Shown here in pieces: positions 18,802 to 64,000 of a DNA stretch of 64,000 nt. The translations under genes were made by a program, and so were the position numbers. The DNA is from Anaerolineales bacterium (lineage in GTDB: Bacteria; Chloroflexota; Anaerolineae; Anaerolineales; UBA11579): contig JANWHN010000076.1 in assembly GCA_025450445.1 (NCBI GenBank), forward strand, positions 2,859 through 66,858, read 5' to 3'. The notes under the pieces are model-generated. The model did not search any database. It was given only the letters and a program-made list of their open reading frames with translations, and was not told where the DNA came from. Position 1 is the first letter of the stretch. Every line of letters starts with the position of its first letter.

Positions 18802-20808
18802 CTAAGGAACGAACGAGAAGCGATAGGCCGCGGTCTGGCGAGTGAAGCGCGTGGTTCCGACCACGACCAGGGTCACATCGTCGCCATTGAGCGGGACGTC
18901 GACCACGTTGCCATCGGGAATGTCGATGTACTCAACCGTTTCTGCGTCGTGATTGATCACCGCGATGCGGAACGTTTGCGGCAGCACGTTAGTGACGCGG
19001 GCAAAGCCGAGCCCTTCCCAGCCACCGTCGCCAGCTTCAAAATCTTCTGAGTAGCCGATCTCATCGATGGTGATGTCATCGATCAGGAAGCCTTCGCCGT
19101 TCACAGCCGCGTCGGTGACGTATTCGAAGCGCAGTAGAACCTGCTGACCAGCGTATTGAGAGATGTCGACAGTTTCTTGAGTCCATTCTGAAACGTTGCC
19201 ACCACCGGAAAGACCGGTGAAGCCCCAGCCATAGCTGTTGCCGGTCGGGTTGGTGTCGGTGCCGCTGGGCGTAGTGATGAAGTCCCAGTCGTCCCCATTG
19301 TTGGTGGAGCCGAGCAAGTAGACGTAATCCCAGTCGGTCTCGATGTCGAACCAGGTCTGGAAGGACAGATTGATGTCGCCGGACACGCCAGAGAAATCGA
19401 AGGCGCGGGTCAAGGTCATGTCGGAAACGTCGCCCTTGTTGGACCAGAAGGCATAATCGCCGGAGTAAGCCGAAGCCGGTAACAGGCCGGTGGAGGTTGA
19501 CCCCTCAAAGCGCAGAGTTCCACCGCAAGCTAGACTAATGTAGTCGGCCCCATACTGATTGACGGAGCGAGTTTGAGGATCTGTTGAACAATCAGCAGTC
19601 TCAGTGGCACTCACGGGGAAATGCAAGGAATCTGGATATTGCGAATAGCCGTAACGGCCATCGGCAAAAGAGGGATCCGCGAGATAGTTAGCCACGGCCC
19701 AATCCAAGACCACGTCATCGCCAACAAATGGAGAGCCCGTTGACGGGTTTGCAATCCCTTCGGCTAGAAGGACATCATCTACGCTGTCCATGCCGTTAGC
19801 CGGATCGGCCACTAAAGCTTGAGTAGCTTCCTTGCCAAAGCGTTCCAAGAAGTAGGTGACAAACAAACAGCCAGCGCCGTAGTGAGGGGTGGTGGCATTG
19901 CTGTCGTTGGGCCAGTCATTCAGGGATACATCGGGATCTACTAAGTACTCGGAAGCAAAATCACAGGCTCCGTATCCGTTCAAAGAAGACGCCAACTCAG
20001 ACATACCCTCATTCAGCCAGCTGGTTTCATTTTGATCTCGATAGGCATGGATCATGTGCTGGAATTCATGGGCAAGCACGCCATAGGTATAAACGTCATC
20101 GAGTGCGCTGTTATCGGAGTTGAAAACAAACATTTCGGCTGCGTTCGAGTACTCATTTGCCAAAGGATGGATCCCGTCGTTGGACGAGAAATACCCAGCG
20201 ATACTAAATCCGATGCCGGGCGTGTAAAGAACGTAAATGTGGGGGTCGTTATCGATGCCAGGGAAGAACTCCTGACCAAAGAATTCGCGATCGGTGGGAA
20301 CGATATCGTTTTCGAATTCCTGAGCCAGAGCTACCAGGTCGCCCTCGTCGTAGCTGACGCCTTCTTCCACCCAGAAGTAAGCAACTGGGCCTTCATAGCG
20401 AAGAACAGCATTTACCTGAGAGCTAAGGTCAGTATCGTTGTTAGTAATCCAGAAGCTGCGCTCGTCCCCAATGCTGTATTCACCTGGAAAGGGGACCGTG
20501 TCAGGAATGTTCTCAATTCCCTTGAGACGATCAGCTAGATCTTCCGGATCGTTTTCGGGAACTATAGTGTTCTCCAGTGTCAACAAAGTTTCATCTGACG
20601 GCATTTCGCCGGATTGAAAATCAGCAGGGGTCGGATCTGCGGAAGAGGAGTCTGTTGGCGGAGAAAATTCGCTTAGGGTGCTAAGCAGGCCGGGTTCCTC
20701 GCTGAGGAACCATAATGCGCCGAAACCGCCAAGGGCTACACAGGCCACGCAGGCGATGACCGCGACCAACAACACAATTCCGATAATGAGCAGGGTTCTT
20801 TGATTCAT
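18802..20808 (-). CDS. membrane-anchored secreted zinc metallopeptidase (HExxH; M6/InhA-like)
   Basis: 668 aa with an N-terminal TM (LLIIGIVLLVAVIACVACVALGGF) and zinc motif VLAHEFQHMIH. The large C-terminal beta-rich region is rich in D/G/W/Y. Family assignment is tentative. Confidence 0.75.
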   Translation of the reverse strand: MNQRTLLIIGIVLLVAVIACVACVALGGFGALWFLSEEPGLLSTLSEFSPPTDSSSADPTPADFQSGEMPSDETLLTLENTIVPENDPEDLADRLKGIENIPDTVPFPGEYSIGDERSFWITNNDTDLSSQVNAVLRYEGPVAYFWVEEGVSYDEGDLVALAQEFENDIVPTDREFFGQEFFPGIDNDPHIYVLYTPGIGFSIAGYFSSNDGIHPLANEYSNAAEMFVFNSDNSALDDVYTYGVLAHEFQHMIHAYRDQNETSWLNEGMSELASSLNGYGACDFASEYLVDPDVSLNDWPNDSNATTPHYGAGCLFVTYFLERFGKEATQALVADPANGMDSVDDVLLAEGIANPSTGSPFVGDDVVLDWAVANYLADPSFADGRYGYSQYPDSLHFPVSATETADCSTDPQTRSVNQYGADYISLACGGTLRFEGSTSTGLLPASAYSGDYAFWSNKGDVSDMTLTRAFDFSGVSGDINLSFQTWFDIETDWDYVYLLGSTNNGDDWDFITTPSGTDTNPTGNSYGWGFTGLSGGGNVSEWTQETVDISQYAGQQVLLRFEYVTDAAVNGEGFLIDDITIDEIGYSEDFEAGDGGWEGLGFARVTNVLPQTFRIAVINHDAETVEYIDIPDGNVVDVPLNGDDVTLVVVGTTRFTRQTAAYRFSFVP

Positions 20809-22268
20809 GATTTCCTTCCGAGGCGGAATTCTTTAGGATAGTAAGGGGAAAGTCCAGCAATAATGCCCAATATAACCCACATGATGGGAAAGGTGAATGA
20901 ATCCTGAGTTAGATTGCGCAGAACCAGCGCGAGCCAAGCGAACAAGCCAGCGATGGCGACGAAACGCAGCGTGCTGTCTCCGGAGATGAACAGGCGCCGG
21001 ATGATGGCAACGAAGGAAAGAAGGAAGGCGACAAAAAGCCAGAAGCCAGGCAAGCCGGTTTCGGCGAGCAAGCGGACGTAAAGGCTCTTAGTGTTTGGAA
21101 TGAGATCCGAATCGGGGCTGAGCTGGCGGGCGATCTCCGGCAGGTTGAACGACCACTCCGGAAAATTCTGGAGCAGGGTCAGCCCGCTGGCGCCCATGCC
21201 CACGCCCGTAAGCGGCGTGCTTTCGTAAAGGCGATAGCCGGCGACGGCGTAGGCCAAACGCGGCCCGGCGCTAATGTCGACGAGGTAGTCAAGCGGATCA
21301 TCGGCTTCGGTGATCCGCCAGATGTTGGCAAAGTATTCGTAGTCGGACAGAAAGTTTACCGACACAAAAGCGATCAGCAAGATTCCGACAACCAAGCCAG
21401 ATCGAATCAGCATAGGAGTAGCGCGTTGCTTTTGTCGAGATCGTCTAAACGGGGTTATGAACCAAGACCAAGCGGCGCGCAAGTTTGATCTACCCGCAAG
21501 CAGGGTTACTAAAACAATACAGAGCAACCCGGTAAGCAAGCCGCTGCGAGAGTACGTGAAAACTAGCACGGCCAATGACAAAACAAACAGCGAAGGCTCG
21601 ACCCACTTGCGTTTGGTTAGGGAGCGAGCGCTAAGTAAAGCGGCGAACAGCCACGGCAGGAAAAAGATGACGAGCTGATCGGCCAGCCAAGCTGGCTCAT
21701 AGGCGAAACCGCTGATGCGGCGCTGCTGGAGAGGCCGGGTGGAGATAAAAGTTTGCAGCTGGTTGACCCAACTGCGCGGGATTAAGGAAGTGTTGACGGC
21801 GACGGCCTGGATCAGAGACCAGACGATGGTTAGTGCTAAGCCGGCGTAGATCCATTTCAGGGACCAGTTGAGATCGTCCTTGGTGCGATTCATCCAGAAG
21901 GCAACGAAGAAAAAAAGTAGACCGATAAGAACCGAAAACCAACCGCGCAAGGCGCGTTCGTCATAGGAAAAATCGCGCATGGGCAACGGCGCCTGCAGCA
22001 AGCCGATAAACGTAAAAGCGAGGGCGACAAAGAGGAAGGCTAGCAACGGTTTAATGTTGGTGGGCAGGGCGATGCGGCGGCGCTGAAGAAAGATAATGAG
22101 TAAGACAATGACCAGCAGAGCCAGAGGATAGAGCGCCAACGGCTTGACCAAAGTGCGCCCGAGACCAGGAATGTAGCGAAAGGTTGTGATCGGCAAGGTC
22201 AGCAGGACGAAACCCCACAGCCAGCGTGCGACGCGCTCGAGGCGCGGCAAACTGAAAAATTCGGCCAT
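20805..22268 (-). CDS. O-antigen ligase/polymerase-family (Wzy_C domain) membrane protein
   Basis: 487 aa with at least 10 TM helices. The FTYSRSGLLTGLLCIVLV region and a large loop are typical of WaaL/Wzy_C/O-oligosaccharyltransferase proteins. ATGA overlap with the peptidase gene. Confidence 0.8.
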   Translation of the reverse strand: MAEFFSLPRLERVARWLWGFVLLTLPITTFRYIPGLGRTLVKPLALYPLALLVIVLLIIFLQRRRIALPTNIKPLLAFLFVALAFTFIGLLQAPLPMRDFSYDERALRGWFSVLIGLLFFFVAFWMNRTKDDLNWSLKWIYAGLALTIVWSLIQAVAVNTSLIPRSWVNQLQTFISTRPLQQRRISGFAYEPAWLADQLVIFFLPWLFAALLSARSLTKRKWVEPSLFVLSLAVLVFTYSRSGLLTGLLCIVLVTLLAGRSNLRAAWSWFITPFRRSRQKQRATPMLIRSGLVVGILLIAFVSVNFLSDYEYFANIWRITEADDPLDYLVDISAGPRLAYAVAGYRLYESTPLTGVGMGASGLTLLQNFPEWSFNLPEIARQLSPDSDLIPNTKSLYVRLLAETGLPGFWLFVAFLLSFVAIIRRLFISGDSTLRFVAIAGLFAWLALVLRNLTQDSFTFPIMWVILGIIAGLSPYYPKEFRLGRKS

Positions 22269-23005
22269 TATTTGAATTTAGATGGACGGACTAGCACATA
22301 AGTCGCGGCAGCTAGTGCGCTGACCAGCGAACCGGCCAATAAATAAGTGGCCTGGCTAACACTGCGCTCAACTGGCAAATCTTCTGCCTGACTGACGCTA
22401 ATCTCGATATACATCGAAATGCCTTGCGTATGCTCGGCGAGAAACGCGATCTCATCCAACAATTCTTCGATGCGGGCTTGATCGGGTTCGGATGCGGCCA
22501 GCTCAGCATTTAATTCTGCGCGAGCGGATTGCAATTCAGGTGAGGCGGTCATCGCAGCGCGGGCTGCATCTACGAAAGCCTGCGCCCAGGCACCCGCCAA
22601 CTGCTGGGCGGTAGCAGGATCACCATCATCGGCGTACAAGTGCCAGCCGCCGTCAGACGGGTGAGCAAGCTGCAAAATATCGGGGCGCAATTCTGCGACG
22701 CTAATGCCTGATTCTTGCGCTACCTGTTCCATGACAACATCGGACCAAGCGAGTTGTTCCAAGCGCTCAGTTTCCCGCTGCAAAAATTGAAAGAGAGCCC
22801 GGTCGGGGTAGTACTGCCAGGCTTCTTCGAGATTGTGATCGACGACCACGGTAGCGCGAGCGCGGTAATCCGGCGGGGCGACCAAGTAGACGACCCAAGC
22901 CAGCAGGGCGCCAGCCAGCGCACCCAGCAGCCAAAGACGCCAGTTGCCGAAAAGGTCGGCGAGCGGATCGTTGGTTGGATTGAAACGAGATTTGCGCTTG
23001 GGCAT
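22268..23005 (-). CDS. Wzz-like polysaccharide chain-length determinant / co-polymerase-like protein
   Basis: 245 aa with an N-terminal TM followed by PPDYRARATVVV, a coiled acidic middle and a C-terminal TM (LLAGSLVSALAAATYVLV). This is PCP topology. Confidence 0.55.
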   Translation of the reverse strand: MPKRKSRFNPTNDPLADLFGNWRLWLLGALAGALLAWVVYLVAPPDYRARATVVVDHNLEEAWQYYPDRALFQFLQRETERLEQLAWSDVVMEQVAQESGISVAELRPDILQLAHPSDGGWHLYADDGDPATAQQLAGAWAQAFVDAARAAMTASPELQSARAELNAELAASEPDQARIEELLDEIAFLAEHTQGISMYIEISVSQAEDLPVERSVSQATYLLAGSLVSALAAATYVLVRPSKFK

Positions 23006-23006
23006 G

Positions 23007-23798
23007 TTAATCGCGAACTCCGGCCATGCGCTGGCGGCGATAGCGAATTATTGGGAAAAGCAATTTACGCAGCCAATATTTGGCGGTGATGATCGAGAGC
23101 GGGCTGCCACCCTGGCGGCGATGGACGGTGAGCATGTCGTCCCAAGCGTGCATGTCGTTCTGAATGGTCTTTGAGTCAGCGTGGAGGCGGAATTCCGCCC
23201 AGAGGCGGGGGTGATAGTGCAAGGTGCTGATCTTGGCCAATCGCACCCAAAAATCATAATCCATGGCAAAGGTTAGGTTTTCATCAAGCGGACCAGCCTG
23301 CCACCAGAGCGCCGAACGCCAGAAGGTAGCCTGCTGCGGGATGTGCACATAGCCTTCGAGCAAGCGAGCGTAGTCGGTTTGGTGGGCGGCGAAGCGACCG
23401 ATCAGGCGACCTTCGGCGTCGATGAAATCTGCATCACCATAGACCAGGCCGATATTGGAATGAGCTTCCAGGAATTCGACAGCTTCGCGCACAGCGCCAG
23501 GTTTGAGGCGATCGTCGGCGTTGAGCCAGGCCATATATTTGCCTTTGGCCTTGGCGAACCCTTTATTGATCGCATCAGCCTGGCCGCGATCGCGCTCCGA
23601 GACCCAAAACGCCAACTGGCGCTGCAGGCGCTTGATGATGGCTGGGCTTTCGTCGGTGGAGCCGCCGTCGATGACGATGTATTCAATGTTGGCGTGGTCC
23701 TGGGAGAGGACCGAATCCATGGCCGCTTGAAGGAATGCGGCCTGATTGTAGGAGGGCGTGACGATGGAGACGAGCGGTTGCATCGCCATTACGACCAA
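23007..23798 (-). CDS. family-2 glycosyltransferase
   Basis: [24 protein letters not shown]...[14 protein letters not shown]...WLNADD (DxD-type). Paralogous to the N-terminal half of the next gene. Confidence 0.9.
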
Positions 23799-25633
23799 CT
23801 CTCGTTGTTGTAATAAGGATGGGCAACATCTTTGGTTAGATCGTGGATGCGGGAAATTTCTTCGGGGGTCAGGCGATGTTTCCAGTTTTCGAGATTGGCG
23901 GCGCTATCGAGCTTGGTGGAGTAGATCGAACTCAGGGAAACTTCTTGTGGATTCTCGACGCCTGTCGAGCGCGAGATTCTTTTCTTTGCGCGCGAAGTGA
24001 AAAACAAGCCGAGGTGGTTATAGAGTTTCGAGAAGCCTGCAATTGGGTCGCGGGATAAATCTTCATGCAAGATCACGCCAAGCTGAGGATTTTCTCGCTG
24101 CCTGCGGTGAGTCACGGTGGCAATTATGCGCCACAGCAAACTGCCCTGCAGGATGACATCACTGGGAGCTTTGGTCACGGCTTCGAGCTCGGTGCGGAAC
24201 GGCTCGAGCAGATCGCGCATCAGGAGTGGCTGGGCGAGCAGATCGTTGAAGTCGAAGGACCAGTCGAGGCGCTTGAGGCTGCTGACGAACGCGGCCGGAT
24301 GGCGGAGCACGACGACGACATCGCAATTGAGGCGCTCAGCGAACCAGGACGTTGAGAAGACGGCGAAGGGGTCTTTAAGAAGCACGCGGCGGCGCTGGAT
24401 GCGGCCGATGGTGAAATTGGCCCAATCGCGGAGCATGCGCAGGAAATCTTTGAGCGAGCGTAGGGATTTTATTTCGCGCAAGAGGTGGTAGTCGAGCTTT
24501 AGGGTCTCATTGAACGGCTGAACAAATTCTGTTTCATTCTCTTTGCAAATATACGTGTACCAATGCGTGACCGGGGAGCGCATCACGCCGGGACGGTGCC
24601 AGACGTTGAGCGGCTCGCTGACATAGGCCACATCGCCGTTCTGGGCAAGCATGCGCCCCACCCAGGTGGTGCCGGAGCGATGGAGACCGGTCACCATGAT
24701 TGGGCGGCGGTTTGCTGCCGGGTTGCGGTGCAGCCAGCCGAGCCCGAGCAAACTGAGAAGCGCGTAGCCGATGCGCTTCCAATGGGCAAGCGTGTAAGTT
24801 GGATGCAAAGATAAGGCGCGGGCGTAAGAGCCTAGTGCGCGAGCAGGCTCGCCGCCATCGAGCAGATAGCGCGCCTGCAGCCGATAGGCACCGCCGTGGA
24901 CGCGGCGCGAGTGCTTGCGAACAAGATCGCCCAGAACCGGTTCCGTTTTGGCCAATTCGAGAATGCGGAAGGCTTCTTCGCCGAAACGGGCGGCGTGGGC
25001 TACGTTCTTTGCGGCCGCGTGATGGCGAGCGGCGGCCCAAACTCGCGGCATGTGACGGATGGAAACAAGCCGCGCCATGCGCAGCCAGAGATGATGATCG
25101 AAGAGGAAGTTGTAGGTAGGATCGAGGTGGCCGGCTTCTTCGAGCACCGCGCGGCGCATAAACACGGATGGCTGCCCGATGATGCGGAAGGTGAACAGGT
25201 CGAGTAGGTCGTACTGACCATAGCGAATTGTGTTGAAGACTTTGCCATCTGCGTCGATCGAATCAAGTTCACCGTAAACCAATCCGGCGTCGGGGTGCTG
25301 CGCAAATGCGGCGACGGCTTGGCGGATGGCGCCAGGGCGATAGATGTCATCGGAATTTAGCCAGGCGACGAATTGGCCGCGGGCGCGAGCGAAACCTTTG
25401 TTAATCGCGGCGGCTTGGCCTTCGTCTGGCTCGGAAACCCACCAAGAAATGCGGTCGGAATATTTCTTGATGATTTCGACCGATCCATCGGTCGAGCCAC
25501 CGTCGATAACCAGGTATTCGATGTTTGGATAATCCTGCTCAAGAACTGAGAGGATGGTTTGCTCGAGATATGCGGCTTGATTAAAGGATGGCGTGATGAT
25601 CGAAACGAGAGGCTGATCTTGTTTCTCTGCCAT
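23789..25633 (-). CDS. fusion protein: N-terminal GT2 glycosyltransferase + C-terminal sulfotransferase
   Basis: 614 aa. N-terminal half: [24 protein letters not shown]...[10 protein letters not shown]...WLNSDD. C-terminal half: [19 protein letters not shown] (5'-PSB loop) and [17 protein letters not shown] (3'-PB). Confidence 0.85.
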
Positions 25634-25637: not shown

Positions 25638-27170
25638 TCAAGACCCGCTGCGCAAATCGTAAATTAAATAGCCGTCGCCTTCGGCAAAGACCGGGTAGTG
25701 AGCTGCTAAGTATTCCTGCAGCAATGGCTGCTGGTCCAGCTGGTTGAAGGTGGTGATCAGGAAATAATCCATGCCAGCCGTGCGGGTCAGAAAGAATTGC
25801 TCGAAGTCATCGGGTTCATTGCCGCGCAGACCAGCGAGGTAAAGCTCGCCGGTGACCGGCCACAGCTCGACCCGGCGCCAGCCATAGTAGTTGAGCAGGT
25901 TGCCATAGTGTTGGACTAGGCCGATTGTCTTGCCTTCGGCGGGAATAGCCGCGCCAACCCGTTCCCAATATAGGGCTTCGGAGCGATAGTCAACACCGAG
26001 CAGGTTCGAGCGATTGGTCCAGGCGGTGATGGCTAGAGCGCCAACAAGCAGACCTACAAACAAGAAACGCCAACCGCGCGATTGTCCGGCGATCTTCTTA
26101 ACCACAAGATCGAAGAGCGGCGCCATGGAAAGAGCTGCGATGGGGACGAGCATGAGGTGGTAATAGGTGTGGGTGGTGGTTTGGTGCGGGAGCGTGATGC
26201 CGTAAGCCGCGTAGCCGAGCCAGGCGCCGATCAGCAGCCAGCGGGCAAGCGGCGGCGCGATCAGCACGCCGGCGGCGGCCAGCACCAATCGGGCGCTGCC
26301 GAGAATCTCGGTGAGCATATCGGCCCAGCGAAAATAGAATTCGGGCTGGAATGCTAGCGGCATGAGAGCGACGACCCAGTTCTGGAAATAATTTCCGGAT
26401 GTGCCGCCAATGCTGAGAAGGTAATAGAGCCCAGCCGGCAAAATGGCAATCAACGCGACAGCCCAGACCTGGCGATTGCGCAATGCAGCCCTTGCCCCAA
26501 AGGCGGCCAGAACCAAAGCGGCGAGCACGCCTAGCAGCAAATAAGCGGCGAAGACTTTGACCAGGATCGCGATCGCGGAGGCAACCGCGGCGATGAGCGC
26601 CCACTTCCATTCCCGTTCGCTGCCCCAACGATAAGCAGCGTACATCGCCAAGATCAACCAGGCGACCATGAAAGGATCGGGCTGAAACGACCGGCTGGCC
26701 TGAAAACCAAACGGAAGGAATAAATAGTAGGCAACTGCGATCAGAGCCGCGGCGGGGCCGGTGAATTGCAGGGCCAGTGCATACAACGGGATTGCGGCGA
26801 GAACCCAGAAGAGCGATGTAAAAATGCGGGCGACCCACAAATTTTCGCCACCGGAAAGCCAATAGCCAGCGGCGACAATGGTTTCAGGGATCGGCGGCTC
26901 AAGCTCGGCGACGGAGAAGCGCTGGGCGAGTGCCTCTTCTTGGACAACGGGATCAGTTGATGGCGAAAGTTGGTAGTAGATGCTGCGGGCGATCAGTGCG
27001 CCCCGGTATTGGCGGGTGGGATGAAAATCGAGCGGCAGGTCGGTGAGATCGACCATGCGCAAGCCGAATCCAAATAGCATCAGACCGGCCAAAGTGAACT
27101 CCGCCCAGTGAGTTTGAATACGCGAACGTATGGAACGCGATTTGTTTTTTTGTTTCTTTCTTGGAGTCAT
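25638..27170 (-). CDS. GT-C fold membrane glycosyltransferase (ArnT/PMT, GT39/83-like)
   Basis: 510 aa, polytopic. The N-terminal loop [30 protein letters not shown] and overall architecture resemble ArnT/PMT_2 proteins. Confidence 0.7.
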
Positions 27171-36934: not shown

Positions 36935-37184
36935 TTTGCTTGGCCTTTACGTGAGCAATGATGGCTGGGATGCTGACCAATTTGCTGATCGTCTCCGCGG
37001 TTATTTCGACGCCGAATTTGCTCTCCAGCGCGACCATCAGGTCCATATGCCCCATCGAATCCCACTGCGGCAATTCACCGAACTGAGTTTCTGATCCAAC
37101 TTCAGCAGCCGAAATGTGAAAGACGTCGACAAATACGTCTCGCAGCTCGACTAATAGCGCTGTTTCAGTTGTTTTCGAGGCCAT
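36927..37184 (-). CDS. acyl/peptidyl carrier protein
   Basis: 85 aa with the phosphopantetheine attachment motif LPQWDSMGHMDLMVALE. Confidence 0.85.
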   Translation of the reverse strand: MASKTTETALLVELRDVFVDVFHISAAEVGSETQFGELPQWDSMGHMDLMVALESKFGVEITAETISKLVSIPAIIAHVKAKQNG

Positions 37185-43339: not shown

Positions 43340-45100
<1,761 letters not shown>

Positions 45101-45267: not shown

Positions 45268-45276
45268 TGTTATAAT
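45268..45276 (+). promoter_or_regulatory. extended -10 promoter element TGTTATAAT
   Basis: Exact TGnTATAAT at 45268-45276, 14 nt upstream of ATG 45290. Confidence 0.45.
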
Positions 45277-45289
45277 CCGCGCGCCCAAT

Positions 45290-55977: not shown

Positions 55978-57042
55978 TCACATCAAATCCGAAGAGCGGA
56001 GTTCTTTGCCGTACGGCAAATCTGCGACGGCTTTTTTGCCGAGAACGCCTGGGATATCCCAAGCCATGAGTGCGCCAGGGGTGGCAGGGCGCAAGACCTC
56101 AAGCATATCTTCGCTGAAAGTTTCGCCCTTTTTCACGTCGCGCGAAACGCGCAAGCAATGACGCTGGACGATGTAGGTGTCTTTTTCGTTTTCGGCGACA
56201 AATTTTTCGGAGGAGCCGAGGGCGCGTTCCAGGATGCGGACCTCGGCGACCATGTGCGCCCAGTTTTCGGGATTGAGGGCGAACTTATGATCGGGGCCTT
56301 CGCGGTCGTTGCTATCGGTGAAGTGGCGTTCGATGACGCGTGCGCCAAGCGCAACTGCCCCAACAACCGGAGCAGCGGATTGGGTGTGATCTGAAAGGCC
56401 GAGAATCACATCGGGCCAAAGTTGGGCGTAAGTTTTGAGGACGTTCAAATGTAAATGGTCATAATTGCTTTCGGCAGCAGTGTAGTTGGTATTGCACTGC
56501 ATCAGCACGAGTTGCTTGTTGACCTTGCTGACCATGTCCATAGTGCGTTTGACATCATCGAGGTTGGAGTCGCCGGTGGCGATGAGGACGGGCTTGCCAA
56601 ACTCTGCCATGCGCACGATGGCTTGCGGCCACGAGATGAGGCTGGAACCTGCTTTGTATGCGGGCACATACGGATCGAGCATTTCGATGGCTTCGTGATC
56701 GTAGGGCGATGAAAAATAGTGGATTCCAAATTCATCGCATGCGTCTTTCAGCGTGGGCGTCCATTCGAAAGGAACGGCGGCGTCTTCGTAGACCTCGAAA
56801 ACGCTTTTCTTCCAGGCAGCTTGATGCGATAAACGTTCGCCAAGATTCTTGAAACCATAATCGGAAACGATCTTGGGGGCGCGGAAATTTTGGAACTTGG
56901 CCGCGTCGGCGCCGGCCAGCTTGGCAAGGCGAATCAGCTCGACGGCGCGCTTAAGATCGCCGTCGTGGTTAGCAGCAATATCAGCGATGAAGTATGTGGG
57001 GTGGCTGGGACCGACCTTGCGGCCCTGAATTTCAATGTCCAT
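55978..57042 (-). CDS. NeuB/PseI/LegI-family nonulosonic acid synthase (full length with SAF domain)
   Basis: PTYFIADIAANHDGDLKRAVELIRLAKLAGADAAKFQNF, plus C-terminal VSRDVKKGETFSEDMLEVLRP (SAF). Confidence 0.9.
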   Translation of the reverse strand: MDIEIQGRKVGPSHPTYFIADIAANHDGDLKRAVELIRLAKLAGADAAKFQNFRAPKIVSDYGFKNLGERLSHQAAWKKSVFEVYEDAAVPFEWTPTLKDACDEFGIHYFSSPYDHEAIEMLDPYVPAYKAGSSLISWPQAIVRMAEFGKPVLIATGDSNLDDVKRTMDMVSKVNKQLVLMQCNTNYTAAESNYDHLHLNVLKTYAQLWPDVILGLSDHTQSAAPVVGAVALGARVIERHFTDSNDREGPDHKFALNPENWAHMVAEVRILERALGSSEKFVAENEKDTYIVQRHCLRVSRDVKKGETFSEDMLEVLRPATPGALMAWDIPGVLGKKAVADLPYGKELRSSDLM

Positions 57043-57051: not shown

Positions 57052-57981
57052 CTAGACCGCTTCGCGAACTGCAGCCAAAGACTGCAGTCTGGCCCGGTAC
57101 CCTGACTCGTGCAAGGCAAATAATTTCTCGATGCCATCGGCGACGGTGGGCATGCGGCGGCCGATAGCTTTGGCTATTTTTGAGGTCTTGAGGGTGAGAT
57201 TGGAAGAGCGAGGCGCGCCGCCGTTGGTTTCGGTGGCGGCGGACTTGATCAAGTCCGGATCCAGTCCAAAGCGTTTTGCGATGGCCTGACCGAACTCAAA
57301 CTTGGTGAGCGAATCGGAGGCGGCGACATGCCAGATACCGCGCAAATTGCTGGCGAGCATATCGAGCAAGACGGCGGCGAGATCATTTACCAAGATGGGG
57401 CAGAAGAGGCGATCGATGAAACCCTGGACCGGTTTGCCTGAAACTAAATTGTTGTAGAAAAATTCCGCCAGGCTGCGGTTACCGGCAATACTCCAGCCGA
57501 AAAAGTTTGGACGGACGATGATGGTGCCGGGGTGAGCGGATTTAGCAGCCAGCTCCGATAGACGCTTGGTGCGACCGTAGACATTGATGGGCGAAGGCGA
57601 ATCTTCTTCGCGGTAATTGCCTTTGGAGCCATCGAAGACGGCGTCGGTGGATATGTGCATGAAGCGCAGCTTGCGCTTGCCCGCTTCGGCGGCGAGCCGG
57701 CCCGGCATCTCGGCGTTGAGGCGCCGAGCGAGCTCGGGTTGGCGCTCACAGGTATCCAAGTTGGCTAGCGCGGCGCAGTTAATAACCCAGTCCGGCTTGG
57801 TCTGCTCTAGCACCGCGGTTATCGCATCTGGTTCAAGCAAATCGGCCTGGATGGTTTCGAAACCGAGATCTCGAAACTCAGCGTTGTGCACAACGCCAAC
57901 GACATCGTATTTGGCGACGGCTTCGAGAGCGAGGTTGATGCCGAGCAGACCGCTGGCACCCGTGATCAGAATGCGGGTCAC
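57052..57981 (-). CDS. RmlD-like NAD(P)H-dependent sugar nucleotide 4-reductase
   Basis: ILITGASGLLGINLALE and ISTDAVFDGSKGNYREED (RmlD substrate-binding pattern). Confidence 0.85.
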   Translation of the reverse strand: MTRILITGASGLLGINLALEAVAKYDVVGVVHNAEFRDLGFETIQADLLEPDAITAVLEQTKPDWVINCAALANLDTCERQPELARRLNAEMPGRLAAEAGKRKLRFMHISTDAVFDGSKGNYREEDSPSPINVYGRTKRLSELAAKSAHPGTIIVRPNFFGWSIAGNRSLAEFFYNNLVSGKPVQGFIDRLFCPILVNDLAAVLLDMLASNLRGIWHVAASDSLTKFEFGQAIAKRFGLDPDLIKSAATETNGGAPRSSNLTLKTSKIAKAIGRRMPTVADGIEKLFALHESGYRARLQSLAAVREAV

Positions 57982-58985
57982 GCCAGCTTGCCTGCTTTGA
58001 TCTCCGCTTCGATCGGAGCGACCATATCGCGGATCTGGGTGAGCGAAAGTTTTTCAGGATTTTCGTCGCTGGAATAATAGAAACCGACGGGGAGAGGCTT
58101 GCCCTGTTTCTCCCAGGACTTTACAAACCAAGGGCCCAGGGCAGGTTGAATCACATACATATCTTTTAATTCAACGGCAGTGCGGGCTTCGTCTTCTGAA
58201 ATAAGGACTTCATGAAGTTTTTCTCCGGGACGAATGCCGACAATGTCGTATTTGGCATCCGGGGCAATGGCTTTAGCCAGATCCAAAAGGGAGGTGCTGG
58301 GCAACTTGGGAACGAAGACTTCGCCGCCTTGCATGACCTCGATGCAATGCAACACGAAGCGCACGCCTTGTTCGAGAGACAACCAGAAGCGGGTCATGCG
58401 CTCATCGGTGATGCTTAGCTTGCCATTGGAGCGCTGGCGGAGAAAGGTCGGCACCACGGAGCCGCGGCTGCCAACGACGTTGCCGTAGCGGACGCAACTG
58501 AAGCGCGCTGGCCGATCTCCGGAATATGCATTGCTTTGCACGGTGAGTTTTTCGGCGGCCAGCTTGGTGGCGCCATAAAGATTTACGGGACTGACGGCCT
58601 TATCGGTGCTGAGCGCCAAAACTTTGCTGACGCCGGTTTCCAGCGCGGCCTCAACCACATTAGCAGTGCCGAGAATATTGGTGTTGATGGCTTCCATCGG
58701 GTTGTATTCACAGGCGGGAACCTGCTTGAGTGCAGCAGCATGGACGACAACCGTGACGCCGTCCATGGCGCGCTTCAGGCGCGCCTGATCGCGCACATCG
58801 CCAATGAAGTAGCGCAAGTTGGGTTGATCGAAGCCGGCGGCACGCATATCGTGCTGCTTGAGCTCGTCGCGGCTAAAGACAATGACCTTGGCCGGCTTGT
58901 ATTCATCCTGCAGAATGCGAATGAAGGCCTTGCCGAACGAACCGGTGCCGCCGGTAACCAATACGACCTGTTTTTTCCAATCCAT
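57978..58985 (-). CDS. UDP-N-acetylglucosamine 4,6-dehydratase (PseB/FlaA1/CapE/WbvB-type, Polysacc_synt_2)
   Basis: VLVTGGTGSFGKAFIRIL and ALSTDKAVSPVNLYGATKLAAEKL (YxxxK). Confidence 0.9.
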   Translation of the reverse strand: MDWKKQVVLVTGGTGSFGKAFIRILQDEYKPAKVIVFSRDELKQHDMRAAGFDQPNLRYFIGDVRDQARLKRAMDGVTVVVHAAALKQVPACEYNPMEAINTNILGTANVVEAALETGVSKVLALSTDKAVSPVNLYGATKLAAEKLTVQSNAYSGDRPARFSCVRYGNVVGSRGSVVPTFLRQRSNGKLSITDERMTRFWLSLEQGVRFVLHCIEVMQGGEVFVPKLPSTSLLDLAKAIAPDAKYDIVGIRPGEKLHEVLISEDEARTAVELKDMYVIQPALGPWFVKSWEKQGKPLPVGFYYSSDENPEKLSLTQIRDMVAPIEAEIKAGKLA

Positions 58986-58994: not shown

Positions 58995-59840
58995 CTACTT
59001 ACTAATTACAACCAATGGATATAGTCCGCGTTCGCCAAAGAAACGCGGAAACAATTCTTCAAGCCGATAGAGGATACGCAGCCAAAAGCGACCGCCCCAC
59101 TCCTCGCGAATAAAGAAGCGCAAGACATTGGTGCTGGCGCTGCGCCAGACCAAAATGCGGAAGTTCAATTTACCTTTCAAGGCTTGCTTTAACCAAGCCG
59201 CGTCCTGTTTATTTACGAAAGTGCCTTTGTCTTCCTCATCATCCGGGCTGGCACCGTTCGATTTTTTCTTACGGCCTTTGAGCCAAGCTTTGATGCGGTC
59301 GAACAGTTCATTGAGCGACGAGTAGCCCCAGCCGTTGACGATGACGGCGCGATGGCCGGGGGCGAGGACGCGGTGGAGCTCGAGATAAGCCTGGACGTGC
59401 TGCGAAACGGGAAGGTGATGAATGGTGTGCAATGAGACGACCGCATCGAAAGCGTTAGGGGTGAAGGGCAAGCGAGATACGTCGGATACCACGAACAGCC
59501 CCTGATCGCCGATGCGATGGCGGGCGGCTTTGAGGGCGGTGATGGAGAGATCGGCGCAGACGCGTTTTTGAAAACCGCGCGAATAGTCAACGTATTCAGG
59601 ATATTGGATGGGGCCGGAGCCGGCATCGAGGAAGAGGCGGCCCTGCGAATCGATGTGGCGCATCACGCGCAGATGGCAGCGATGGATGTAGTCCTGCGAG
59701 ATCGGGCGCAGGTCTTCATAGCGGGCGTTCTGGTAGAGGCCGTCGGAGATCTCCTTCCAGCCGACGCGATCGTAGAACTCGCGCACCTGGCGCTGAATCT
59801 CGCGCTCGTCTTCCATGATCTCAGTCGGCATTTCAGTCAT
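58995..59840 (-). CDS. class I SAM-dependent methyltransferase
   Basis: ATG 59840 (MTEMPTEIMED). Motif I-like FLDAGSGPIQYPEY, then AVVSLHTIHHLP. Confidence 0.8.
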   Translation of the reverse strand: MTEMPTEIMEDEREIQRQVREFYDRVGWKEISDGLYQNARYEDLRPISQDYIHRCHLRVMRHIDSQGRLFLDAGSGPIQYPEYVDYSRGFQKRVCADLSITALKAARHRIGDQGLFVVSDVSRLPFTPNAFDAVVSLHTIHHLPVSQHVQAYLELHRVLAPGHRAVIVNGWGYSSLNELFDRIKAWLKGRKKKSNGASPDDEEDKGTFVNKQDAAWLKQALKGKLNFRILVWRSASTNVLRFFIREEWGGRFWLRILYRLEELFPRFFGERGLYPLVVISK

Positions 59841-60007
59841 GGGTGAAAAGTTCCACACTTTTGATTTTGCGCGAGGGTTCGAAAGAAGTGAAACGAAAAA
59901 CCCCTTCGCTAACAACGCTCGGCGATTCTGGTGCCGTATTAATGTTTCCGCTCAGGGAGACATATGAAGAGCGGACGCGGTGATTGTGACTTGGGTTTGA
60001 CATAAAC

Positions 60008-61594
60008 TCAGTTGGCATCCCAGCCAAAGGGATCTCCCGTCAGATAGCTGAAACTGTTTGCGTATTTTTCCTGCCCCGCAGCACTAAAAAGATCTGAGAG
60101 TGAAGTTGTTTCCAGATCCTTGGAAAAGTGGAGCAGGTGCCAAGGAAACGGCTGCGGATAATCGAAAAAGAAGCGGTAGGCATAATGCCAGGCCTGATCA
60201 ATTTTTGCCCGGCTGAGCCGAGCGGTGGGTAGATCGGATAAAGCAGTTTCGAGTTGGGCGAAATAATCTTCCCAAGATTCTGGATCAATAGTGAAACCCT
60301 TGGCGCGGTAATGGGTGCGTCCAGCAACGATCACCGGAACGCCGGTCATAGCCATCTCCAATCCCACGGTGGTGGTGTAGACGAGGCCAAGATCGGCGAT
60401 GGAAGCCAGGTCGTAAGTATTGACCGGATCACCAGCGGACACGACGCGCATGTGCTCGGGGAGCTGGGAGAGTTCCTGGCGGACGAGATCGGCGACTGAA
60501 GGACCGTCGAGGTTTTTCTCGCCGGGATGGACGCGCAGGACGAATTGCAGATCAGGACGGGCGGCGAAAAAGGCAAGGGTGCGGCATAGCCAGGTGCTCA
60601 TGTCGCCGGTGAAGGCGGCCCGACCCAGGGTGAGGCTGTCGCCGATGACGTTGGCGGCCAGCAAAACGATCGGGCGCTGATCGAGACCCAGCTTCGTGCG
60701 GACCGCGTCGGCGCCTTCAGAAGGAATATCCTGCCATTTGCGGTAAAAGTTCTGGAACAAACCGGCGTCGGCGCGGGTAGCGAACAGTTCTTCGACCTTG
60801 GCGCGTTGAGCGTCTGAAAATGGCTCGTCTTTTTTGGCAGTCCACATCGCATCAGTTTCCTGAAGCATGACCGGGCTGTTGCGAGAGAGCCAGATGCGAT
60901 CGCGTTGTTCGCCGAATTCGTAACTGACGACAGGGATATCCAGGTGGCGGGCGGTGTGAAAGATGGCGCCGAATTCAAGAATGAGCCCGTTCGGCAGAAT
61001 AACTACGTCCGGCTTTTCGCGAGTGAGCCAAGCCAGCGCGGCGGAAGCAGCGGCCCGATTGCGCTGCAGACGAAACTGAAAGAGATCGGATCGCTGATCG
61101 ACCTCTTCAATCTGGAGCGTGTATTGCGCGTCCATCAAGGAAACATGCTCGATGTGCGCGTCAAGAACTTTGGGAAAGGGCGCGGTTGCAGCAGTTGAAA
61201 AAGATTGAATGTTCAAAAGTTTTTCCGCGGGTTTGAAAACTTTGCGGGCGTAGGCTTCGCGACGGCGCAGATCGAACTTGCTGACGGGTTTCTTCCAGTT
61301 CGAATACGGCAAATAAGCCAGCGAAACATCATGACCCAAGCCGGCAAGGGCCAGCGACATGAGGGTGGCGTGGCTGATCCAATAGTGGAGGGTGGAGAAA
61401 AGCAACACCTTGTGACCAGGCTGATCGCGCAGCGGAGAAGCTGTGGCCTGCTGTACCCAGCCGGGCAACGATTGCTCAAGCTCCTCGAGCTTGAAGCCGT
61501 CCATGCCGGCACGGCGGCCGCGCAGCACCCAATCGAGCTCGGCGGTGAGGGGTAGTTCGCCGAGGACGCGGGTAATGCGATCTCTGGTAAGCAT
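60008..61594 (-). CDS. capsule-biosynthesis-like (KpsC/KpsS, GT-B type) protein, paralogue 3
   Basis: 528 aa with VVILPNGLILEFGAIFHTARHLDIPVVSYEFG, FVLRVHPGEKN and LVYTTTVGLEMAMTGVPVIV, colinear with 37193..38773. Confidence 0.5.
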   Translation of the reverse strand: MLTRDRITRVLGELPLTAELDWVLRGRRAGMDGFKLEELEQSLPGWVQQATASPLRDQPGHKVLLFSTLHYWISHATLMSLALAGLGHDVSLAYLPYSNWKKPVSKFDLRRREAYARKVFKPAEKLLNIQSFSTAATAPFPKVLDAHIEHVSLMDAQYTLQIEEVDQRSDLFQFRLQRNRAAASAALAWLTREKPDVVILPNGLILEFGAIFHTARHLDIPVVSYEFGEQRDRIWLSRNSPVMLQETDAMWTAKKDEPFSDAQRAKVEELFATRADAGLFQNFYRKWQDIPSEGADAVRTKLGLDQRPIVLLAANVIGDSLTLGRAAFTGDMSTWLCRTLAFFAARPDLQFVLRVHPGEKNLDGPSVADLVRQELSQLPEHMRVVSAGDPVNTYDLASIADLGLVYTTTVGLEMAMTGVPVIVAGRTHYRAKGFTIDPESWEDYFAQLETALSDLPTARLSRAKIDQAWHYAYRFFFDYPQPFPWHLLHFSKDLETTSLSDLFSAAGQEKYANSFSYLTGDPFGWDAN

Positions 61595-62887
<1,293 letters not shown>

Positions 62888-63745
62888 CTAGACGGTATCC
62901 GCAAAAGTGCGCTCCATGTTGCGGAAATAGATCAGGCCGGTGACGAGCAAGGTGATGGCGGTGACGATCGAAATCCACAGGGTGTCAGTGGAATAGATGG
63001 GCGTGCCGAGGAGCGCGGCGCGGAAGCCTTCGATCACGCCGACCATCGGGTTGAGGGCGAAGAGCCAATGCAAACCCTCGGGAATGCGGTCGTAGATCTC
63101 CTTGGCTTCGTAGGCGATGGGCGTGATCAGCATCCAGAATTGAGTAAGGAACGGGATGATGTATTTCACGTCGCGGTAGTGGACGTTGAGGGCGGATAGC
63201 CAGAGGCCGACGCCGAGAGCGGTGACCATCGAGAGGAGCATGTAGAAGGGCAAGGTCCAGATGGCTTCGTTGGGGAAGATGCCGTAATAAAACATCATGC
63301 CGACCAGGATGAGGAAGGCAATGGCGAAATCGAGGATGCCGCTGAGGATGTCGGAGAGGGGAATGATGAGGCGGGGAAAATAAACCTTGGTGATCATATT
63401 GCGATTGGTGACCAGAGAGCGGCCGGCGTCGCCGACGGCGTTGGCGAAAAGGTTCCAGGGCAGCAAGGCAGCGTAGGTAAAGATGGGGCGCGGGATGCCT
63501 GCGCTGGAGAGGCCGGCGATATTGCCGAAGATAAAGTTGAACACGAACATTTGCAGGAGGGGCTGCAGGATGGCCCAGGTGCCGCCGAGTAGGGTCTGCT
63601 TGTAGCGGACGAGGATGTCGCGCCAGGTGAGGAAGAAGATCAGCTCACGGAAGCGCCAAAGCTCGTGCAGGTCGAAGCCGGCTAGGCCGCGCTGCGGCTT
63701 GATGATCACGGTATCACTGGCTGCAGGGTTGGTAACCGCGCTCAC
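62888..63745 (-). CDS. wzm: polysaccharide ABC exporter permease (ABC-2 type, Wzm/TagG)
   Basis: 285 aa with a GTG start. [27 protein letters not shown] and six TMs. GTGA overlap with the upstream gene. Confidence 0.9.
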
Positions 63746-64000
63746 TTAACGGCCACCTTGCGGTGCTCGCGGAACCAGTCGATCGTCTTGCGGAGGCCGT
63801 CTTCGAATTTGGTGGCGGCGCGGAAGCCAAAGTATTTTTCGGCGCGGCTCACGTCGAGGAGGCGGCGAGGCTGGCCGTTGGGCTGGGAGGTGTCCCAGAC
63901 GAACTCACCTGAGTAGCCGGTGAGCTTGCCGATTAATTCGGCTAAGTCCTTGATGCTGATCTCATGGCCTGAGCCGAGGTTGACGGGTTCGTCGCCGTTG
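63742..64000 (-). CDS. fcl: GDP-L-fucose synthase (GDP-4-keto-6-deoxymannose 3,5-epimerase/4-reductase), C-terminal fragment; gene continues beyond the window
   Basis: Manual minus-strand translation: ...[79 protein letters not shown]. It is colinear with the Fcl C-terminus (D.SKPDGTPRKLLDV). Confidence 0.8.

Follow-up and report, generated by a model that had tools for sequence, protein, structure and literature searches.

The 64,000-nt stretch analysed here (the window) corresponds to positions 2,859-66,858 of the forward strand of contig JANWHN010000076.1 in assembly GCA_025450445.1 of Anaerolineales bacterium (GTDB lineage Bacteria; Chloroflexota; Anaerolineae; Anaerolineales; UBA11579). 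On balance, we favour the reading that about 50 kb of it and its immediate surroundings form a vertically inherited envelope-glycan locus, in which a chain would be assembled and sulfated on a lipid carrier, exported by an ATP-binding cassette (ABC) transporter and ligated to an acceptor other than lipopolysaccharide (LPS). What was observed directly is which domains are encoded, that the sulfotransferase motifs are intact and that the gene order is conserved. The locus may make a single polymer, possibly linked to protein.

Each principal open reading frame (ORF) of the window was translated and run against Pfam and NCBIfam. Homologous loci from Anaerolineales or metagenome genomes are labelled L001-L067, except that L012 is from a Proteobacteria metagenome-assembled genome (MAG). 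A preliminary description of the sequence had proposed a glycan locus at 18802-64000 with some 40 tightly packed genes, all but two of them on the minus strand, and without transposase or integrase. This layout was borne out by 41 ORFs, a count that takes in an 85-aa carrier protein missing from the earlier list and the truncated last gene; only 45251-46930 and 46927-48522 lie on the plus strand, 35 of the 40 junctions overlap or span at most 10 nt, and domain scans of the window ORFs found no transposase or integrase. The core of the proposed interval stands but its ends do not, since relatives extend the locus to 17451 at one side and past 64000, where it starts, at the other.

The most complete comparison is contig JBBDXR010000008.1, which is tiled by L015, L003 and L013 and was compared by tblastn with the window proteins. 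It is fully collinear with the window locus (short names as in the feature rows below): MarR_EPS-like regulator, SDR, Fcl-like, Wzm, Wzt, BFO3, methyltransferase, PseB, RmlD, NeuB2, GT4, CTPc, unknown, GT2c, BFO2, ST3, GFO, (memB and memA on the opposite strand), PAPS synthase, SDRb, CTP/HAD, NeuB1, BFO1, carrier protein, ligase, GNAT, AAC3, DUF4910, ST2, ST1, GT2b, CTPa, 2HADH, SDRa, Maf, PMT2a, GT2-ST, GT2a, Wzz-like, Wzy_C, InhA-like (two copies), (YtxH) and ST0. The order is also kept in the closer relatives L001, L002, L014 and L016 and in the more distant L018 and L019, whose marker proteins are 54-60% identical, and panB-panE-panC flanks the L018 locus as it does in the window. Collinearity across close and distant relatives points to one vertically inherited unit. 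Thus, the idea of a coherent glycan locus instead of unrelated clusters is upheld by a complete gene order kept in other Anaerolineales at 50-85% protein identity.

The enzymes for sulfation (PAPS, 3'-phosphoadenosine 5'-phosphosulfate; APS, adenosine 5'-phosphosulfate) are encoded as follows.

17451-18254, minus strand: ST0, soluble sulfotransferase at the conserved distal locus end (Sulfotransfer_1, 50.3 bits; PRAGSG and RDPRAAxLS kept)
23789-25633, minus strand: GT2-ST, fusion of a family 2 glycosyltransferase (GT2) and a sulfotransferase (PF00535, 108 bits, with Sulfotransfer_3 and Sulfotransfer_1; HRSGTT and RHPAAxVSS kept)
31407-32267, minus strand: ST1, soluble sulfotransferase (Sulfotransfer_1, 52 bits; PKSGTH and RDPRDxxxS kept)
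32261-33121, minus strand: ST2, soluble sulfotransferase (Sulfotransfer_1, 41 bits; PKSGSH invariant in 12 of 12 sequences)
43340-45100, minus strand: bifunctional PAPS synthase (ATP-sulfurylase PF01747, 280 bits; APS kinase PF01583, 213 bits)
49510-50604, minus strand: ST3, soluble sulfotransferase (Sulfotransfer_3, 78 bits; ARSGTT and RDGRDxxxS kept)

Pfam confirmed the earlier call of PAPS synthesis within the locus. The count of four sulfotransferase domains plus a fifth at 17451-18182 was also right, except that the fifth gene runs to 18254 and lies inside the locus; its position is conserved in L013, L014 and L018. None of the five sulfotransferases has a transmembrane (TM) segment. The preliminary description had considered that these genes might be inactive, and at sequence level this is not what we found, since the 5'-phosphosulfate-binding (5'-PSB) and 3'-phosphate-binding (3'-PB) motifs for PAPS are intact and invariant among orthologues that are otherwise 50-75% identical. 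Homologues of the PAPS synthase, the GT2-ST fusion and BFO3 are abundant, and the named organisms are always Anaerolineales, Anaerolineae or Chloroflexi. Among the 120 homologue clusters listed for the fusion, about 100 hold full-length homologues with at least 50% identity, and all named ones are Anaerolineales or Chloroflexi. The PAPS synthase has near-identical relatives (99%) on contigs of 4-7 kb.

The locus also has natural variants. Their counts come from a metagenome scan with an alignment of the carrier-protein ligase, which gave more than 500 relatives, the best 80 loci of which were compared; a genome scan with the same ligase pointed to nine MAGs of Anaerolineales/Chloroflexia and a distant one of Proteobacteria. 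In loci of the window type, the PAPS synthase precedes SDRb (11 loci) and ST2 or ST1 follows DUF4910 (16 loci), whereas in a second form GFO is followed directly by SDRb (7 loci) and DUF4910 directly by GT2b (11 loci). The second form (L038, L039, L043, L050, L052, L054-L056, L058, L067) is without PAPS synthase, memA/memB, ST1/ST2 and detectable GNAT; it keeps the series NeuB1-BFO1-ACP-ligase-AAC3-DUF4910-GT2b (ACP being the carrier protein), its DUF4910 proteins being only 28-30% identical to that of the window. Both minus-strand blocks are contiguous on one strand there, in the order BFO2-GFO-SDRb-CTP/HAD-NeuB1, which supports a single ancestral locus. The second form appears to be a non-sulfated sister of the locus, and the comparison suggests that a core cassette that makes ulosonic acids and aminoacylates them or other sugars may have gained sulfation as an extra module.

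PAPS and the sulfotransferases could instead serve mainly a non-glycan target, such as a sulfolipid, some small metabolite or the assimilation of sulfur; their place in the locus would then be fortuitous and the glycan unsulfated. The PAPS synthase, with homologues 70-86% identical across many Anaerolineales, has a housekeeping-like look, the substrate specificity of bacterial sulfotransferases is not readable from sequence, and bacterial enzymes of this kind that act on lipids and Nod factors are known. We consider this explanation very improbable, because the fusion joins sulfotransferase and glycosyltransferase in so many homologue clusters, all five sulfotransferases sit amid glycosyltransferases, and ST1 and ST2 form an insert that parts DUF4910 from GT2b. 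Moreover, these two come and go with the PAPS synthase among loci, which ties the three genes to the product of the locus.

The sugar precursors are represented by the following genes (UDP, GDP and NDP, uridine, guanosine and nucleoside diphosphate; CMP, cytidine monophosphate; GlcNAc, N-acetylglucosamine; HAD, haloacid dehalogenase; KDN, ketodeoxynononic acid).

27986-28759, minus strand: SDRa, short-chain dehydrogenase (adh_short_C2, 171 bits)
28762-29742, minus strand: 2HADH, D-2-hydroxyacid dehydrogenase, glycerate/hydroxypyruvate reductase-like (2-Hacid_dh_C, 206 bits; NCBIfam matches all below cutoff)
29743-30432, minus strand: CTPa, CMP-ulosonic-acid-type cytidylyltransferase (CTP_transf_3, 91 bits; PseF, 74 bits, below cutoff)
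38805-39677, minus strand: NeuB1, NeuB family without SAF domain (PF03102, 260 bits; best PDB match 6ncs, also 290 aa)
39678-40913, minus strand: CTP/HAD, fusion of a cytidylyltransferase and a KdsC-type HAD phosphatase (CTP_transf_3, 67 bits, with Hydrolase_3)
42504-43316, minus strand: SDRb, short-chain dehydrogenase (adh_short_C2, 169 bits)
48519-49508, minus strand: GFO/IDH/MocA oxidoreductase (PF22725, 81 bits)
53840-54601, minus strand: CTPc, KdsB-like cytidylyltransferase (CTP_transf_3, 115 bits; KdsB subfamilies about 76 bits, below cutoff)
55978-57042, minus strand: NeuB2, NeuB family with SAF domain (PF03102, 211 bits, plus SAF; NeuB 243 and PseI 233 bits, below cutoff)
57052-57981, minus strand: RmlD-like NDP-4-keto-6-deoxyhexose reductase (RmlD_sub_bind, 192 bits; 4-nt overlap with PseB)
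57978-58985, minus strand: PseB, inverting UDP-GlcNAc 4,6-dehydratase (TIGR03589 equivalog, 473 bits against a cutoff of 407.75)
63756-64000, minus strand: Fcl-like GDP-6-deoxyhexose synthase, C-terminal 81 codons (80% identical to L015 6904-7860)

Two NeuB-type synthases and three cytidylyltransferases (each with CTP_transf_3) had been predicted and were all recovered, so both enzymes that nonulosonic-acid biosynthesis requires, a NeuB-family synthase and a CMP-ulosonic-acid cytidylyltransferase, are encoded. The predicted Fcl gene is indeed Fcl-like, with only its last 81 codons in the window; the best NCBIfam match of the full-length L015 orthologue, GDP-L-fucose synthase, reaches 310 bits against a cutoff of 500.

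NeuB1 without SAF and the adjoining KdsC-type fusion suggest a phospho-sugar route of the kind that leads to KDN or to animal Neu5Ac; the fusion scores 129 bits for KdsC (cutoff 208) and 72 bits for KDN-9-phosphate phosphatase (cutoff 180). The second route departs from the canonical Pse, Leg and Neu pathways. The canonical Pse pathway (PseBCHGIF) was considered and rejected, as PseB is present but the locus has neither PseC nor PseG. The locus carries no DegT-family gene (the PseC type), either here or in relatives, and the only such gene of the window, 847-2034, scores 289 bits against a PseC cutoff of 423.5. For PseG, neither a Glyco_tran_28_C nor a PseG match was found in the locus, where the GT-B proteins BFO1-BFO3 are the sole conceivable substitutes. 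PseI and PseF equivalogs were not detected either (NeuB2, 233 bits against the PseI cutoff of 340; cytidylyltransferases, 74-157 bits against the PseF cutoff of 205.7). As a hypothesis, reduction at position 4 would turn the PseB product into a 6-deoxy-hexosamine, from which NeuB2 condensation would yield a 3,5,9-trideoxy ulosonic acid. A fusaminic-acid structure is reportedly known from Fusobacterium. Trideoxy relatives of fusaminic acid are known (PMC7371886).

As a separate observation, the gene at 847-2034 (minus strand, DegT/PseC/LegC family, about 290 bits, under both cutoffs) lies 15 kb past the locus end, and housekeeping genes including a pantothenate/CoA operon (11632-17225) stand between. 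This aminotransferase might supply the amino-sugar step that is missing from the locus.

Next to NeuB1 and BFO1 lies a cassette that gives more weight to the aminoacylation idea of the preliminary description. The protein resembling an aminoacyl-tRNA synthetase (aaRS) is a Bll0957 homologue, and its gene overlaps that of a PP-binding carrier protein by 8 nt.

33126-34502, minus strand: DUF4910/DUF2172 protein with M28-peptidase-like fold, CA_C2195 family (PF16254, 217 bits; PDB 3k9t, E=7e-56)
34502-35344, minus strand: AAC3, AAC(3)-like aminosugar N-acyltransferase (PF02522, 135 bits)
35278-35853, minus strand: GNAT acetyltransferase (PF00583, 46 bits; orthologues of 152-161 aa, true start probably near 35740)
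35753-36934, minus strand: amino acid:[carrier protein] ligase homologue with SerRS-like class II core (PDB 3mey, Bll0957, E=2.6e-40)
36927-37184, minus strand: 85-aa carrier protein (PP-binding, 29.4 bits against a cutoff of 20.8; WDSMGH serine motif)

The Bll0957 match covers residues 88-390 of the ligase homologue, which scores 168 bits for NCBIfam NF005479 (cutoff 357), and the carrier protein gene was found in all relatives. DUF4910, N-acyltransferase, ACP, Maf and NeuB form a conserved neighbourhood that has already been described (PMC4000134). In the Proteobacteria MAG (L012 22-2250, JAHJKV010000446.1), a 39%-identical ligase homologue adjoins an AAC(3)-like acyltransferase, and the ligase-acyltransferase partnership may thus reach beyond Chloroflexota.

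The glycosyltransferases are diverse (GT-B and GT-C are fold classes).

23007-23798, minus strand: GT2a (PF00535, 101 bits)
25638-27170, minus strand: PMT2a, PMT_2/GT39-like GT-C enzyme (PF13231, 65.4 bits; PF02366, 48 bits; kept in relatives)
27171-28172, minus strand: MptE-like/Maf (DUF115) protein, candidate ulosonic-acid transferase (PF01973, 44 bits against a cutoff of 34.6)
30429-31397, minus strand: GT2b (PF00535, 81 bits)
37193-38923, minus strand: BFO1, GT-B protein of KpsC/S-TagB-BFO_1060 type, candidate CMP-ulosonic-acid transferase (BFO_1060, E=1.5e-10; Capsule_synth, 18 bits)
40903-42510, minus strand: PMT2b, second PMT_2 GT-C enzyme (PF13231, 49.5 bits)
45251-46930, plus strand: memA, polytopic membrane protein, candidate GT-C enzyme (about 8 TM segments; memB paralogue, hhalign probability 100)
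46927-48522, plus strand: memB, polytopic membrane protein, candidate GT-C enzyme (LA_3751/LA_3752 putative glycosyltransferase family, E=1.8e-7)
50529-51998, minus strand: BFO2, TagB/TagF-like GT-B protein, candidate CMP-ulosonic-acid or phospho-alditol transferase (Glyphos_transf, 24.5 bits against a cutoff of 22.1)
51964-52941, minus strand: GT2c (PF00535, 47 bits)
54699-55769, minus strand: GT4 glycosyltransferase (Glycos_transf_1, 83 bits)
60008-61594, minus strand: BFO3, KpsC/S-like GT-B protein adjoining wzt, candidate terminal ulosonic-acid transferase (Capsule_synth, 30.8 bits against a cutoff of 20)

Of the five GT2 domains first counted, only four were found, namely GT2a, GT2b, GT2c and the one within the fusion, which had been predicted as such; a fifth was sought by hhalign of a 300-aa protein without family against the GT2a, GT2b, GT2c, GT4 and BFO proteins, and none was seen. 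The single GT4 and the two clear GT-C enzymes (PMT2a, PMT2b) agree with the earlier reading. PMT2b has a GC content of 0.46 compared with 0.53-0.55 in its neighbours, and no counterpart occurs between SDRb and CTP/HAD in any related locus examined. It is the sole window-specific gene of the locus and seems to have been inserted recently, in this lineage alone, while the order of the other genes is fixed. A mobile island was also considered and rejected; this gene is the only sign of recent acquisition.

As GT-C enzymes, memA and memB are tentative candidates. In both, the first predicted TM helix is followed by an invariant FDD motif, their profile gave a single weak PDB match, to the GT-C enzyme AftB (E=0.031), hhalign against the PMT_2 proteins was not significant, and the AlphaFold model of memB from a two-sequence alignment was unusable (predicted local distance difference test, pLDDT, 39). 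The memA orthologue of the Anaerolineales MAG LejiaD_59_59 (L003 1637-3298, minus strand) has an in-frame stop, L006 has neither gene between GFO and PAPS synthase, and L004 has a single gene of this type, both queries matching the same stretch. From these loci the pair seems variable or dispensable.

The Maf-like orthologues have 267-270 aa, which puts the true start in the window probably near 27980. The three BFO proteins, all of them large and soluble, share an RxHP motif (RAHPDE, RLHPNH and, invariant, RVHPGE in BFO1, BFO2 and BFO3). BFO1, with a true start near 38790, aligns with BFO3 by hhalign at a probability of 99.2, and BFO2 matches the BFO_1060 family (E=6.8e-11). The AlphaFold model of BFO3 has a GT-B fold (pLDDT 92.7), with the KpsC beta-Kdo (3-deoxy-D-manno-octulosonic acid) transferases as the best target-normalised TM-scores (template modelling scores), 0.48-0.52. 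PDB sequence searches gave no meaningful match for BFO1, BFO3 or the Maf-like protein. The Maf family has been linked with NeuB clusters (PMC4000134), and the BFO_1060 family includes a genetically proven transferase of a Pse derivative in Tannerella forsythia (PMC5420450).

Export and final transfer may involve the genes at the two ends of the locus (SAM, S-adenosylmethionine).

18802-20808, minus strand: very acidic, membrane-anchored HExxH metalloprotease-like protein with InhA-like MAM domain (PF20773, 89 bits; N-terminal TM segment; HEFQH at 247)
20805-22268, minus strand: Wzy_C-domain polytopic protein, candidate glycan ligase/O-oligosaccharyltransferase (PF04932, 49.4 bits against a cutoff of 31.7; about 12 TM segments)
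22268-23005, minus strand: Wzz-like protein with two TM segments, 24-42 and 221-239 (PF02706, 27.6 bits, weak)
58995-59915, minus strand: SAM-dependent methyltransferase, possible chain cap or sugar O-methylation (Methyltransf_11, 58 bits)
61595-62887, minus strand: Wzt ATPase with C-terminal carbohydrate-binding domain (ABC_tran, 69.5 bits; Wzt_C, 31.5 bits, just above its cutoff of 30.4)
62888-63745, minus strand: Wzm ABC-2 permease (PF01061, 72.4 bits against a cutoff of 26.9)

Pfam matches confirmed the predicted Wzm/Wzt exporter and Wzy_C protein; the predicted Wzz-like protein was also matched, weakly (cutoff 25.5) and over its N-terminus only. Two genes adjoining wzt, for the KpsC-like GT-B protein and the methyltransferase, encode candidate chain terminators. 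L019 (10001-12636) has no methyltransferase between BFO3 and PseB, so a methyl cap would not be universal to the locus. The Wzy_C gene is kept in L013, L014, L017 and L018, and its product had no match in a PDB search. The motif PNxK(S/N)hhVRLLAETG (residues about 390-405, window 21000-21100) is kept in the orthologues and in relatives only 28-30% identical. Its invariant Lys may stand at the spot where WaaL/PglL-type enzymes have His-Asn.

The sole acceptor candidate is the InhA-like protein, which could be either the glycan acceptor or a processing protease. It contains 0.4% lysine and 9.7% aspartate and has a linker rich in S, T, P and D after its anchor. Its gene overlaps the Wzy_C gene by 4 nt, is kept in relatives and is duplicated in L013 (14862-19020).

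ABC export combined with a Wzy_C-type transferase had been likened to S-layer glycosylation (slg) loci, and this agrees with published slg loci, which use Wzm/Wzt, a methyl cap and a Wzy_C O-oligosaccharyltransferase (PMC2943079). The other comparison offered, with O-antigen loci, fits poorly. If this were a diderm locus of the classical kind, for LPS O-antigen or a group 2-like capsule, the Wzy_C protein would be WaaL and the KpsC/S-like proteins would build the Kdo linker; Wzm/Wzt with Wzt_C, Wzy_C, a Wzz-like protein and Capsule_synth domains are all typical of such loci. However, the homologues put the organism in Anaerolineales, and Chloroflexota are without genes for LPS and for BAM, the machinery that assembles beta-barrels (PMC13319060), which makes lipid A an unlikely acceptor. 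The window has no KpsD/E, KpsM/T or lipid A gene, and the KpsC-like matches are weak (18-31 bits). We therefore regard an O-antigen or capsule locus of this kind as extremely improbable.

A more serious challenge, in our view unlikely but the strongest of the alternatives, is that the conserved island encodes two or more separate glycoconjugates. An upstream block (Fcl to GFO) would then make an ABC-exported capped polymer, and a downstream block (PAPS synthase, NeuB1, acylation, Maf, PMT-like GT-C, Wzy_C/Wzz) would serve protein or wall glycosylation. The minus-strand blocks are indeed split by the divergent plus-strand pair and a 150-nt divergent intergenic region, which separates this pair from the downstream block. 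Wzy_C and a Wzz-like protein are the signature of a pathway other than Wzm/Wzt, and L051, L053 and L059 pair Wzy_C directly with the ACP-ligase cassette. In addition, the PF02366 and PF01973 matches are to GT39/PMT-type and Maf-type families, whose enzymes can glycosylate proteins directly with no need of an exported polymer. Against two products, the blocks are adjacent in every genome examined and contiguous on one strand in the non-sulfated variants, sulfotransferases and BFO-type transferases are spread across both blocks, and no Wzx flippase is present for a separate Wzy route.

Several observations weigh against a single pathway of assembly, ABC export and ligation. The Wzz-like and Wzy_C proteins are superfluous in a pure ABC pathway and could serve a second route, and by sequence the Wzy_C protein is indistinguishable from a polymerase or a lipid-A-type ligase, since the domain also occurs in WaaL and some Wzy proteins. 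No polyprenyl-phosphate primer (WecA/WbaP/PglC; Bac_transf or MraY-like) was found in the window; L015 and L019 have none within 5 kb upstream of the locus either, and such a transferase may lie elsewhere in the genome. A PseG/NeuC-type UDP-sugar hydrolase or 2-epimerase was identified for neither NeuB route in the locus. UDP-GlcNAc 2-epimerases and GT1 enzymes score similarly to the KpsC enzymes by E-value in the BFO3 structure search, and this fold likeness means that one BFO protein could be the missing enzyme and not a transferase. Most NCBIfam equivalog scores are under the curated cutoffs, so that assignments are mostly at family level. Finally, there are at least three transcription units (upstream block, plus-strand pair, PAPS synthase block), and a strong 13-bp GC-rich hairpin (55950-55918, minus strand) lies in a 208-nt gap directly after NeuB2. 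The matching junction in L015 is only 14 nt, and the hairpin may be a window-specific internal terminator or attenuator.

With these points in mind, we still favour one sulfated, ABC-exported and ligated envelope glycan, and from the gene content we infer its chemistry and steps as follows. Three precursors would be made in the cytoplasm: an Fcl-type 6-deoxyhexose; a 9-deoxy ulosonic acid formed by PseB, the RmlD-like reductase, NeuB2 and the KdsB-like cytidylyltransferase with no aminotransferase step; and a KDN- or Neu-type acid formed through its 9-phosphate by NeuB1 and the cytidylyltransferase/KdsC-phosphatase fusion. The aaRS-derived ligase may load an amino acid on the 85-aa carrier protein, from which the AAC(3)-like and GNAT acyltransferases would pass it to an amino sugar with the assistance of the DUF4910 protein. 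The chain would be built, attached to a polyprenyl carrier, on the inner side of the membrane by four GT2 domains, one GT4, three BFO GT-B proteins and the Maf-like enzyme, and O-sulfated there by the five soluble sulfotransferases with PAPS from the locus's own synthase. A terminal residue from the KpsC-like enzyme and/or the methyltransferase would be recognised by the C-terminal domain of Wzt, leading to export by Wzm/Wzt. Outside the membrane, the Wzy_C protein would transfer the chain to a non-LPS acceptor, protein or wall component, and two to four GT-C enzymes may add further sugars.

Two further conserved genes are the following.

18368-18601, plus strand: YtxH-like 77-aa ORF between ST0 and the InhA-like gene (PF12732, 50 bits; a gene at the corresponding place in L013, L014 and L018)
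52941-53843, minus strand: conserved 300-aa protein with no detectable family (55-67% identity in L001, L002, L015, L016 and L019; no Pfam, NCBIfam or PDB match)

Neither tRNA nor Rfam elements were found in scans of the window, and a sigma-70 promoter scan gave fewer sites than shuffled controls and is uninformative for this phylum. Outside the locus, long ORFs overlap on opposite strands (7858-9747 plus and 8350-9795 minus; 9761-10837 plus and 9805-10992 minus). Pfam matches in 7858-10992 are on the plus-strand ORFs only, strong to the MutL-like PF13941 in the first and weak in the second, and the minus-strand ORFs there are probably not genes.

All components belong to known families, and as a whole the locus follows the plan of known ABC-dependent glycan loci. 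PAPS-dependent sulfotransferases encoded among polysaccharide glycosyltransferases, as here, are known from the synechan xss cluster and rhizobial loci. Synechan is made in a diderm, is exported by a Wzx/Wzy system with polysaccharide co-polymerase (PCP) and outer-membrane polysaccharide export (OPX) proteins and is not known to contain nonulosonic acid, whereas the present locus has Wzm/Wzt export, its own PAPS synthase and one sulfotransferase-GT2 fusion. With the KDN and animal sialic routes (NCBIfam NF058599) it shares a NeuB-family synthase, a KdsC-family phosphatase and a CMP-transferase, here with scores below cutoff. Bacteroides thetaiotaomicron has a KDN-9-phosphate synthase and phosphatase, and vertebrate CMAS has a C-terminal HAD-like domain, an architecture that the phosphatase-cytidylyltransferase fusion resembles. 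The ligases Bll0957 and Atu2573 (PDB 3mey and related entries) likewise have a SerRS-like core and a dedicated small carrier protein encoded alongside; unlike them, the homologue here has an extra N-terminal region of about 87 aa, a score below cutoff and a gene within a glycan locus. To our knowledge, no physiological role has been assigned to the characterised amino acid:carrier-protein ligases, and we found no paper that links them with polysaccharides.

Among the published loci, the slg loci of Geobacillus stearothermophilus NRS 2004/3a and Paenibacillus alvei share with ours a monoderm-type host, Wzm/Wzt as the exporter of a lipid-linked glycan, a potential capping methyltransferase, a multidomain GT2 protein, a TagF-like domain and a Wzy_C enzyme (WsaB/WsfB) for the final transfer (PMC2943079). 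Our locus differs in having no S-layer gene, WsaP-type primer or rml genes, and in having PAPS synthesis, five sulfotransferases, two NeuB routes, the ACP/ligase cassette and GT-C enzymes. The protein O-glycosylation locus of T. forsythia (Tanf_01245/BFO_1060) also has a TagB-like GT-B protein with HP motif near NeuB and cytidylyltransferase genes, and its nonulosonic acid bears unusual N-acyl groups, namely glyceroyl (PMC5420450); a 2-hydroxyacid dehydrogenase and acyltransferases are encoded here. On the other hand, our BFO_1060 matches are weak, at 33-42 bits where the cutoff is 200, PseC, PseH and PseG are not present, and the phylum, the ABC export route and the sulfation are different. 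The CA_C2195 neighbourhood of Clostridium acetobutylicum and other phyla shares DUF4910, N-acyltransferase, ACP, Maf/DUF115, NeuB and cytidylyltransferase, but its acyl activation in C. acetobutylicum is by an ATP-grasp ligase instead of an aaRS-derived one, and it is without sulfation and ABC export (PMC4000134). What is new is the combination and the host, that is, a PAPS synthase, five sulfotransferases of which one is fused to a GT2, two non-canonical ulosonic routes and an aaRS-derived ligase cassette in one conserved locus, in a phylum for which no envelope glycan has been characterised. Our literature searches turned up no sulfated or nonulosonic-acid glycan described from Chloroflexota, and the claim of novelty rests only on this absence of matches.

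Microscopy shows outer envelope layers in Chloroflexota that are chemically unidentified (PMC13319060), and the conserved 50-kb locus is a concrete candidate for one of them. Sulfated and sialylated glycoconjugates are abundant in the extracellular polymeric substances (EPS) of granular sludge, in which sulfotransferase genes were not found with reference queries (PMC10483923), and Chloroflexi have been treated as degraders, not producers, of sulfated EPS (PMC9723792); the locus offers candidate genes and a candidate producer lineage for such EPS. The variants with and without the PAPS-synthase/sulfotransferase module are a built-in comparison of the effect of sulfation, the consistent placing of the aaRS-derived ligase within a cassette for sugar acylation suggests a role of its enzyme family that can be tested, and the fusion of GT2 and sulfotransferase may be of use as a tool enzyme for coupling glycosylation with sulfation. 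More specifically, filamentous Anaerolineales could owe their outer envelope or sheath layer to this locus. Its product would then be a polyanionic glycan that is sialic-acid-like, sulfated and aminoacylated and that includes a fusaminic-type (7-hydroxy-9-deoxy) acid made with no aminotransferase, a proposal that we regard as speculative and rather unlikely. If it were true, the glycan would be a bacterial counterpart of animal sulfated sialoglycans, delivery of N-aminoacyl groups would be the first physiological role for an orphan ligase family, and Chloroflexota would be producers of the sulfated, sialylated EPS of sludge and sediments.

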